This document shows, in pieces, positions 3,822 to 4,793 of a stretch of DNA of 22,080 bases. Position numbers and translations under genes: made by a program. Numbering within the stretch: the first letter of the stretch is position 1; each line of letters starts with the position of its first letter. Location of the stretch: IMG/VR virus record IMGVR_UViG_2713896773_000024; one strand, written 5' to 3'. The stretch is from a virus (Duplodnaviria > Heunggongvirae > Uroviricota > Caudoviricetes). Under the pieces are notes generated by a model. That model ran no database searches. It saw only the letters and a program-made list of their open reading frames with translations, and had not been told where the DNA came from.

Positions 3822-4793
3822 ATGATCCGCCCGTTCATCAAATGGGCAGGGGGTAAAACCCGTGTCCTTCCTGACCTGCTGCCGCACCTTCCTAAAGCCG
3901 ACTGCCTGATCGAACCGTTCGTAGGCGGCGCATCGGTATTTCTGGCGACTGAGTACCGCCGCTATGTGCTGGCTGATATCAACCCGGATCTTATTAACCT
4001 TTATCGGAAAGTCACCCGTTACCCGGACTTAGTGATCGATGCGGCCCGCGAACTGTTCAACAGCAAGAACAGCCCGCAGGGGTACAACGAAGTCCGCGCC
4101 GCGTTCAATAAGCAGGTATGTACGGTAAAAAGCTGTGGGTTGCGTTATGGCGTCGAAATGGCGCGCATCATGCGTGCTGCTCAATTCCTGTATCTGAACC
4201 GCCACGGTTATAACGGCTTATGCCGTTACAGCCGTAAGACCGGCTTTAACGTGCCGTTTGGCAAGTATAAGAGCGTCTACTTTCCTGAAAATGAAATCCG
4301 CCTGTTTGCCGAAAAGGCCAACGATACAAAGGCAATATTTCTTTGCGCGCCGTTCCAGCGTTCTCTACAGGTCGTCACGGGTGGCGATGTTCTCGTTTAC
4401 TGCGATCCGCCTTACCTGCCTGAAAGCAAAACAGCCGATTTTACCCAATACCACACCGAACCATTCACGGAAGACAACCACCGCCAGTTAGTCCAGGCAC
4501 TGCTGGAAGTTAACCGTAAGCATGGCGTGAAGGTTGTCATTTCCAACAGCGACACCGAAGCCACCCGCGCGATTTATCAGCCTTTCAAGATGCACGAAAT
4601 CAGCGTGCAACGTTCCGTCAGCACTGACAAAGACAACCGCCAGAAGGCCAAAGAAGTGATCGGCGTGCTGCCTGTCTGCGACTGCTGCGGGCGTTACGGC
4701 GGCGGTTGCCCTGATTGTGGCGCCGTGATGGGTGATGCGACTTACAACGCGATGGTTGCGGCAGGCACGTTTGACGATATGGAGGCGTTTTAA
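3822..4793 (+). CDS. dam: DNA adenine methyltransferase, Dam family, with about 45-aa Cys-rich C-terminal extension
   Basis: [16 protein letters not shown] (motif I), DPPY (motif IV), [15 protein letters not shown], ISNSD; clearly collinear with E. coli Dam as I recall it; extra tail ...[17 protein letters not shown].... Confidence 0.9.
   Translation: [323 protein letters not shown]

Follow-up and report, generated by a model that had tools for sequence, protein, structure and literature searches.

A Dam methyltransferase of a P2-like prophage carries a Cys-rich C-terminal module shared with RecE and small phage proteins

Introduction

Dam in phages is routine, with many temperate and virulent phages carrying one. 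The gene described here is the dam open reading frame (ORF) of a caudoviricete virus, read from a stretch of 22,080 nucleotides (IMG/VR record IMGVR_UViG_2713896773_000024) that we refer to in its entirety as the window. Its product joins a methyltransferase core to a Cys-rich C-terminal tail, and it is this tail, together with the proteins that share it, that we report on.

E. coli Dam (2G1P, 2ORE, 4RTJ-4RTS) provides the reference for the family. It has the same fold as the window protein and is collinear with it over residues 3-282, with the DPPY motif, the S-adenosylmethionine (AdoMet) loop and the aligned DNA contacts kept. E. coli Dam ends in the short basic sequence KPGVVSPAKK, whereas the window Dam ends in a 40-residue acidic, Cys-rich tail. 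Two further well-described enzymes, DpnM (2DPM; phmmer E = 2e-36, Foldseek TMt 0.87) and T4 Dam (1YFJ, 1Q0S; phmmer E = 2e-14, Foldseek TMt about 0.79), have the D12-class fold and belong to the GATC family. Both show 22-27% identity to the window protein, and their aligned chains of 259-284 residues end with the methylase fold, as far as the alignments show.

Phage and prophage relatives come much nearer. The Dam of Enterobacter phage phiT5282H (AYD79783.1) has 97% nucleotide and 97-98% amino acid identity to the window gene, with the same length, tail and operon position. Citrobacter and Enterobacter entries named 'Dam family site-specific DNA-(adenine-N6)-methyltransferase' (P0001, P0002) are 97-98% identical at the amino acid level and have the same tail. 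All three differ from the window protein by point differences only (e.g. M321L), and all are annotated as Dam with the tail left unannotated.

The tail leads to a second known protein, the exonuclease RecE, which is in wide recombineering use. A 2023 review of RecE describes its N-terminal region as 'of unknown function' and mentions neither zinc nor cysteine (PMC11611040). In the literature on RecE zinc or its N-terminus, on P2-like Dam and on full-length RecE, we found no description of the module that we report. Neither the curated libraries (Pfam, NCBIfam, PHROG annotation) nor the papers searched contain this small and very strongly conserved knuckle-helix module, which occurs on Dam, on two kinds of exonuclease and on small early proteins, across three families of temperate phages. 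As a methylase the protein is unremarkable within a well-known family; it is the tail that sets it apart, and the spread of the module to other proteins, RecE above all, merits follow-up.

The tail is a genuine part of the protein

The window Dam continues well past the end of the shared methylase fold. After the last strand shared with E. coli Dam (EVIGVL here, ELLALY there), 40 residues follow in the window protein and 11 of its own in E. coli Dam, a net extension of about 30 residues. An earlier note on this DNA had described some 275 residues collinear with E. coli Dam and about 45 extra ones. Collinearity and extension both stand, with the boundary moved to about residue 283 and the extension shortened to 40 residues.

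Most close relatives carry such a tail. We collected the 120 closest representatives of 90%-identity clusters from a database of 5.8 billion proteins and delimited the tail in 119 of them. Of the 119, 99 have four or more Cys in a tail of 25 residues or more, the median length being 41. Their hosts are Citrobacter, Enterobacter, Klebsiella, Salmonella, Serratia, Yersinia, Pectobacterium, Dickeya and Erwinia. Full-length homologues at 97-98% identity are plentiful, a single cluster containing 1261 members.

Substitution patterns indicate that the tail is under purifying selection and is no less constrained than the core. In comparisons with the Klebsiella and SW3 genes, the proportion of nonsynonymous differences (pN) is 0.15-0.22 in the tail and 0.26-0.31 in the core, while the proportion of synonymous differences (pS) is 0.69-0.74, near saturation.

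These data bear on the simplest alternative, that the extension is an artefact produced by a frameshift, by read-through or by the decay of a pseudogene end. RefSeq gives this idea some footing, as it breaks up the identical sequence of E. coli 0H26 into two incomplete 'DNA adenine methylase' pseudogenes, which span codons 1-260 and 285-319 (NZ_CP081782.1, L012 4501-5457, equivalent to window 3822-4778). Both pieces, however, lie in the frame of the intact 323-codon ORF, the other two frames across the tail contain stops, and the full-length homologues at 97-98% identity, the purifying selection and the presence of a tail in most relatives all speak against decay. We regard an artefact as hardly credible, and the frameshift that the earlier note had raised as a refuting possibility is excluded. 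The pseudogene call on the 0H26 gene looks instead like an annotation artefact of a mosaic of core and tail; a mosaic tail of this kind would lead RefSeq to label an intact dam as a pseudogene in some E. coli genomes.

The tail contains a conserved knuckle-helix module

The CDCC...CPDCG string that first drew attention to the tail is exactly as the earlier note gave it, and comparison with other copies separates its essential from its incidental residues. We aligned 34 copies of the module from Dam, RecE-type and small phage proteins. C286, C289, C296, P297, D298 and C299 are invariant in 34/34, and G292, G293, G294, G295, G300, G304, T307 and Y308 are nearly so; C288 is not conserved. The resulting core consensus is CxxCGxxGGxCPDCG[AP]VMGDATYxxM.

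The arrangement CxxCG-x2-GGG-(x)-CPDCG is that of a pair of knuckles able to hold one zinc ion. Four invariant Cys in a CxxC...CPxCG spacing fit the previously suggested likeness to a small metal-binding knuckle, and the alignment makes it likely that these Cys bind a single zinc ion, stabilising a minimal fold that presents the conserved helix. AlphaFold2 (AF2) places this helix at residues 305-313 in the full-length model and at 302-313 in a model of the tail alone. The full-length model, built for core plus tail on 60 homologues, has a mean predicted local distance difference test score (pLDDT) of 81. The core pLDDT is high, whereas the tail has a pLDDT of 41-66 and is not docked on the core. 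Modelled alone from the 34 aligned copies, the tail reaches a pLDDT of 63.

The module is shared with RecE and other phage proteins

The knuckle-helix module is not confined to methylases. Residues 285-310 of the window Dam match positions 527-553 of the 877-position NCBIfam model of exonuclease VIII (E = 2.8e-5), with a score of 22 bits that lies below the model's cutoff of 1269, and the tail also matches exonuclease PHROGs (E = 2.3e-8). The earlier note had not spotted this sharing. In Rac prophage RecE (exonuclease VIII) the module occupies residues 517-541, of which 517-531 match the knuckle. There it is internal, just before the PD-(D/E)XK nuclease domain, and the rest of RecE is unrelated to the window Dam. 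RecE has the Exonuc_VIII N-terminal domain and the nuclease domain (DUF3799), as PF06630 and PF12684, and the window Dam has neither, so the two proteins share a module without belonging to one family. Thirteen consecutive residues are identical between window Dam and Rac RecE, while 7 of the 39 underlying nucleotides differ, all synonymously. This pattern argues that the shared sequence has been kept by selection and does not reflect a recent transfer of DNA.

Searches at two scales define the range of carriers. A tblastn search of 50,697 phage records with the tail found the module in 52, among them P2-like dam genes, many lambdoid exonuclease VIII genes (RecE match, E = 2e-7) and the gene for a hypothetical protein of Aeromonas phages. 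When 1.84 billion representatives were searched with a profile built from just the tail, only 40 proteins reached E <= 0.001. Besides Dam tails, these comprise RecE-type PD-(D/E)XK nucleases (P0127, P0132, P0144), proteins that join the RecE N-terminal region to a DnaQ-like exonuclease (P0128, P0130, P0133), nuclease-less RecE-like proteins (P0139-P0141) and small proteins of 65-190 residues in which the module is C-terminal, or N-terminal in one case. The nuclease-less proteins probably correspond to the 'RecE-2' class noted in PMC12315714.

The small carriers sit in early regions. RecT, RdgC and a second type of Dam are the neighbours of one of them, in a lambdoid early-left operon; two more are found next to Kil, Gam and GemA in early regions of Mu-like type. 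Neither Pfam nor NCBIfam has a model for the module. All its carriers match only the segment of the exonuclease VIII equivalog, and for ten small carriers Pfam and NCBIfam gave no family beyond that same segment.

Conservation across such different proteins also weighs on a further explanation, in which the Cys-rich tail controls stability or senses redox state or metal, serving as a degron, or as a switch against an excess of Dam that could be mutagenic. Cys number ranges widely among tail types, from 4 to 11, and the C-terminal residue is mostly hydrophobic, as it also is in some protease tags; both features would suit such a role. The GxVMGDATYxxM segment, however, is strongly conserved across unrelated proteins with synonymous changes only, which fits a specific binding surface better, and in RecE the module is internal. 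Control of stability or redox response therefore seems to us quite improbable.

Two observations on RecE-like loci stand beside these results. Some RecE-like proteins with the RecE N-terminal region and the knuckle module (P0128, P0130, P0133, P0139, P0135; L007 1169-2065) lack PD-(D/E)XK and have in its place either a DnaQ-like 3'-5' exonuclease or nothing with a nuclease fold; they too end in an acidic residue followed by Phe (...QADF, ...PVDF, ...HMPDF). In Rac, the 56-residue YdaE (L003 5839-6009), annotated as a 'zinc-binding protein' and encoded a few genes upstream of recE, has no similarity to the module.

Tails are swapped between near-identical cores

Dam relatives carry tails of several types. 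Type A, the window's own, is found in 57 representatives. Type B contains ...CPDCGPCAGYS..., many examples ending ESDSDVLPGYWESEENPIPL; type C, found in phages SEN4 and SEN5, has 11 Cys and ends in DNPETW; type D has GCGHC... and ends in FVDEDAF. In tblastn against phages the type B and type D tails gave no match, probably because low-complexity filtering masked them. EENPIPL is found among the other endings, and the remaining relatives have assorted tail types besides these four. One further C-terminal extension, with 0-1 Cys and a shared GFDPAxGxDxS motif, occurs in P0070, P0087, P0101, P0104, P0110, P0116 and P0119 and may be another exchangeable tail type.

The SEN4/SEN5 Dam (ALF02331.1) captures an exchange. 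Its core is nearly identical to that of the window Dam, but after CGRY-GG the sequence is replaced by the 11-Cys tail. At the nucleotide level the SEN5 gene is 91.5% identical up to codon 295 (window 4706), where similarity ends inside the knuckle, between the two CxxC pairs. In the SEN4/5 comparison, pS is 0.31 for the core and 0.72 for the tail, a jump in synonymous divergence that shows recombinational replacement of the tail, with the junction at codon 295.

An acidic end with an aromatic residue is kept across tail types that are otherwise unrelated in sequence. Among the 99 Cys-rich tails, the last residue is hydrophobic or aromatic in 76 (F in 52, L in 13, W in 8), 73 have an acidic residue in the five positions before the last, and in 87 the final six positions are free of K and R. 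Net charge has a median of -3 across the tails, and the window tail is only weakly acidic.

This end resembles that of bacterial SSB (a protein that binds single-stranded DNA), whose tip (DDDIPF) is likewise a flexible acidic C-terminus with an aromatic or hydrophobic end, as in the FDDMEAF of the window Dam. The SSB C-terminal peptide docks many genome-maintenance proteins (PMC5872125, PMC3632105). A loose SSB-tip-like pattern, acidic and then a terminal hydrophobic or aromatic residue, fits 73 of the 99 tails; the window tail ends in DDMEAF. The likeness is one of resemblance only, without sequence homology: most Dam tails have no Pro before the last residue, and the window tail has no [IL]PF. 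Non-Dam carriers with a C-terminal module have no acidic-aromatic tip. We also considered a beta-clamp-binding motif, of which QL[SD]LF is one type, in the TYxxMF sequence, and rejected it by eye for the lack of a Gln and for the wrong spacing.

An acidic, flexible tail could instead act within its own protein, folding onto the DNA-binding cleft as a DNA mimic or autoinhibitor and so tuning non-specific DNA binding, processivity or timing, in the manner of SSB-type acidic tails. The charge of the tails, the lack of basic residues near their ends, the position of the tail directly after the last strand of the fold, and the retention of the acidic and aromatic end across unrelated tail types are all compatible with this. 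AF2, however, leaves the tail undocked on the core, at low pLDDT, and the module recurs in entirely different proteins, including those of 65-190 residues that have no DNA enzyme, which argues for a target outside the Dam core. We think intramolecular action unlikely, though less so than control of stability.

The core is an ordinary Dam-type methylase

Sequence and structure comparisons agree on the identity of the core, a Dam-family, D12-class (alpha-group) N6-adenine DNA methyltransferase. PF02086 (Pfam) covers residues 8-265 with 215.1 bits against a threshold of 22, and the NCBIfam 'dam' subfamily model TIGR00571 scores 273.8 bits, above its cutoff of 114.85. With phmmer, residues 3-282 align to residues 5-267 of E. 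coli Dam (2G1P) at 47% identity (E = 9.5e-71). In Foldseek the AF2 model matches 4RTN at TMt 0.92 (E = 1e-28, 43% identity).

The earlier note had called motifs I and IV intact, and both are present, as EPFVGGAS at residues 31-38 and DPPY at 195-198. P32, F33, V34 and G35 of the AdoMet loop are invariant in 60 homologues, and the second Gly of this FxGxG-type loop is one position off relative to E. coli. The acidic residue after strand 2 is also kept, D52 (in LADIN) aligning to E. coli D54. The window Dam differs from E. coli Dam in being prophage-borne, in lying in an early operon, in falling below the cutoff of the chromosomal equivalog model and in carrying an insertion of about 17 residues. 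The insertion contains non-conserved C99 and C105, varies in length and sequence among close homologues and has pLDDT below 50 at residues 100-106; it had not featured in the earlier description.

Residues for target recognition are largely preserved. K7, Y130, N131, L133, R135, N143, P145 and Y149 are identical to E. coli K9, Y119, N120, L122, R124, N132, P134 and Y138. Of these E. coli residues, K9, Y119, N120, L122, R124, P134 and Y138 are the ones we take, from published Dam-DNA structures, to have roles in GATC recognition. The alignment makes it very probable that the window Dam methylates GATC.

These contacts also help to judge whether the tail could be a DNA-binding zinc ribbon that adds affinity or alters the recognised sequence. 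CxxC...CPxCG knuckles are common in DNA- or RNA-binding zinc ribbons, and every identifiable large carrier of the module is a DNA enzyme. The module is nonetheless neutral to acidic, with at most one basic residue, and no curated family of zinc ribbons matches it; the core keeps its GATC-contact residues, and close relatives swap or lack the tail with the recognition segment unchanged. A DNA-binding ribbon is thus improbable. The earlier note had offered three roles for the Cys cluster: altered specificity, altered processivity, and tethering to another protein. A change in sequence specificity is unlikely, since the GATC-contact positions are conserved and the tail lies outside the fold; tethering is the role that the sharing of the module favours.

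A proposed docking role for the module

On balance we favour, with somewhat better than even confidence, a reading of the window Dam as an orphan GATC methylase of the early operon to which a zinc-knuckle docking module is appended. For the module taken by itself, we put the chance that it is a docking element for another protein, and not a DNA-binding or specificity element, at even or slightly above. Tethering is favoured because unrelated phage proteins share the module, and because it is acidic, flexible in the models and exchanged among cores that are nearly identical. A docking role further agrees with its being dispensable in some relatives, portable between enzymes that differ in chemistry and present on small proteins that have no enzyme domain.

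Several observations pull the other way. About 20 representatives have no Cys-rich tail, being 277-283 residue forms or having unrelated tails, which shows that the tail is dispensable in some members of the family. No phage-encoded neighbour that co-occurs consistently with the tail was found. Low AF2 confidence for the tail, alone or in context, makes the knuckle geometry a prediction only; no curated zinc-ribbon model in Pfam matches the tail, and RecE itself matches only Zn_ribbon_3, at E = 1.9. On the side of the core, E. coli N126 and R137, which make phosphate or base contacts, are S and K here. Both substitutions are conservative, but with them a relaxed or altered specificity is conceivable. 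The score against the chromosomal-Dam equivalog NF008152 is 279.8 bits, below the cutoff of 441; together with the other scores this marks the window Dam as a member of the family and not an orthologue of the housekeeping chromosomal Dam.

In the mechanism we propose, the core (residues 1-283) would methylate GATC sites on replicating phage DNA, and on host DNA. During rapid rolling-circle replication the phage Dam would supplement a limited supply of host Dam, so that packaged genomes would be fully methylated. Full methylation would protect them from GATC-cleaving nucleases and avoid the processing of hemimethylated DNA. The tail would be a flexibly attached unit made of a four-Cys knuckle, probably holding one zinc, the helix VMGDATYxxM and an acidic, Phe-ended tip. 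Knuckle and helix would form a mobile adaptor through which DNA enzymes reach one shared partner, most probably a factor of the host, and methylation would be efficient because the enzyme is tethered close to the replication machinery.

A more specific version of this mechanism can be drawn by analogy. The knuckle-helix might bind one common host factor of gamma-proteobacteria while the aromatic tip mimics the SSB peptide, the two together recruiting phage DNA enzymes to host replication and repair. We hold this version, with the tail bringing Dam to the host's replication and SSB network, to be speculative and rather unlikely. If true, it would couple methylation to phage replication and give a first functional handle on the N-terminal region of RecE, whose part in linear-linear recombination has gone without an explanation since 2012. 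A docking module of any such kind would show how unrelated phage DNA enzymes reach the same host factor, and would give a testable function to part of the RecE N-terminal region.

An orphan methylase in a P2-like early operon

The surrounding genes mark the window as a P2-like (Peduoviridae) prophage. The genes run in the order int, C repressor, cox, fil, TerB-like, TciB-like, orf70, dam, orf59, gpA, and the portal, terminase and late genes come after gpA (Table 1). An equivalent layout around dam is seen in phiT5282H, SEN5, SW3 and a Klebsiella prophage. Salmonella phages SEN4/SEN5 cover 81% of the window at 95.6% nucleotide identity, and seven complete E. coli genomes contain a prophage gene with 100% identity to dam.

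Table 1. Features of the window around and within dam; residue numbers refer to the window Dam.
Feature	Position	Strand	Basis or remark
Integrase	1-981	minus	neighbour gene of dam
C-type repressor	1051-1428	minus	neighbour gene of dam
Cox	1846-2202		neighbour gene of dam
Phage 186 Fil homologue	2594-2854		accessory early gene between cox and dam
TerB-like protein	2910-3383		accessory early gene between cox and dam
TciB-like/DUF3927 protein, 60 aa	3383-3565		accessory early gene between cox and dam
orf70, 70-aa ORF (phrog_21140)	3608..3820	+	upstream of dam, same operon; function unassigned
Shine-Dalgarno GGAG	3809..3812	+	9 nt 5' of the dam ATG; direct sequence reading
dam ORF, Dam-family N6-adenine DNA methyltransferase with C-terminal tail	3822..4793	+	323 codons plus stop, uninterrupted
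Catalytic methyltransferase core, residues 1-283	3822..4670	+	phmmer to E. coli Dam, AF2, Foldseek
Motif I AdoMet loop EPFVGGAS, residues 31-38	3912..3935	+	E. coli counterpart EPFVGAGS
Variable insertion of about 17 residues relative to E. coli Dam, residues 98-116	4113..4169	+	alignment gap in E. coli Dam
Target-recognition segment, residues 129-149	4206..4268	+	aligns to E. coli Dam 118-138
Motif IV DPPY, D195-P196-P197-Y198	4404..4415	+	invariant in 60 homologues
C-terminal tail, residues 284-323 (40 residues)	4671..4790	+	kept in most close homologues; purifying selection
Putative C4 zinc knuckle C286-x2-C289-GRYGGG-C296-P-D-C299-G300	4677..4721	+	34-copy alignment; match to RecE 517-531
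Predicted short helix, residues 302-313	4725..4760	+	most conserved non-Cys part of the module
Acidic C-terminal tip TFDDMEAF, Phe-terminated	4767..4790	+	last eight residues of Dam
orf59, 59-aa ORF (phrog_8110)	4793..4972	+	downstream of dam; start overlaps dam stop as TAATG
gpA-type rolling-circle replication initiator, P2-like	4969..7326	+	phrog_91 'nicking at origin of replication', E = 1.2e-261

Stop and start spacing shows dam to be one link in a tightly packed operon with orf70 and orf59: the orf70 stop codon (3818-3820) lies 1 nt before the dam start, and the orf59 start overlaps the dam stop. orf70 is 96% identical to the ORF preceding SEN5 dam. orf59 was considered as an obligate partner of Dam and rejected, as phiT5282H and the Klebsiella prophage have it after dam, whereas it is missing there in SW3 and SEN5.

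The gene is an orphan (solitary) methyltransferase of the early operon, as the earlier note had recognised: it lies between cox and gpA, and no restriction endonuclease was found near dam, whose neighbours are small ORFs and gpA. The lack of a nuclease nearby led us to reject dam as half of a restriction-modification pair, and the best PADLOC model for the gene is an orphan methyltransferase.

Composition varies along the window. G+C content is 0.41 at 2801-3200, within the accessory early block (2594-3565), against 0.54 for the whole window. GATC is slightly over-represented, with 142 sites against 122.8 expected (ratio 1.16). CTAG is strongly avoided in the whole window, with 5 sites observed against 18.6 expected (ratio 0.27).

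The slot after gpA (7316-8542), occupied in P2 by tin and old, has a single plausible ORF, 7316-8095, which probably starts at an internal MSKITRER... This ORF has PHROG matches only of unknown function and no Pfam or PADLOC match, and the ORF at 8123-8542 looks non-coding. In the related E. coli 0H26 prophage the same slot has an ImmA/IrrE-family peptidase and a hypothetical protein instead.

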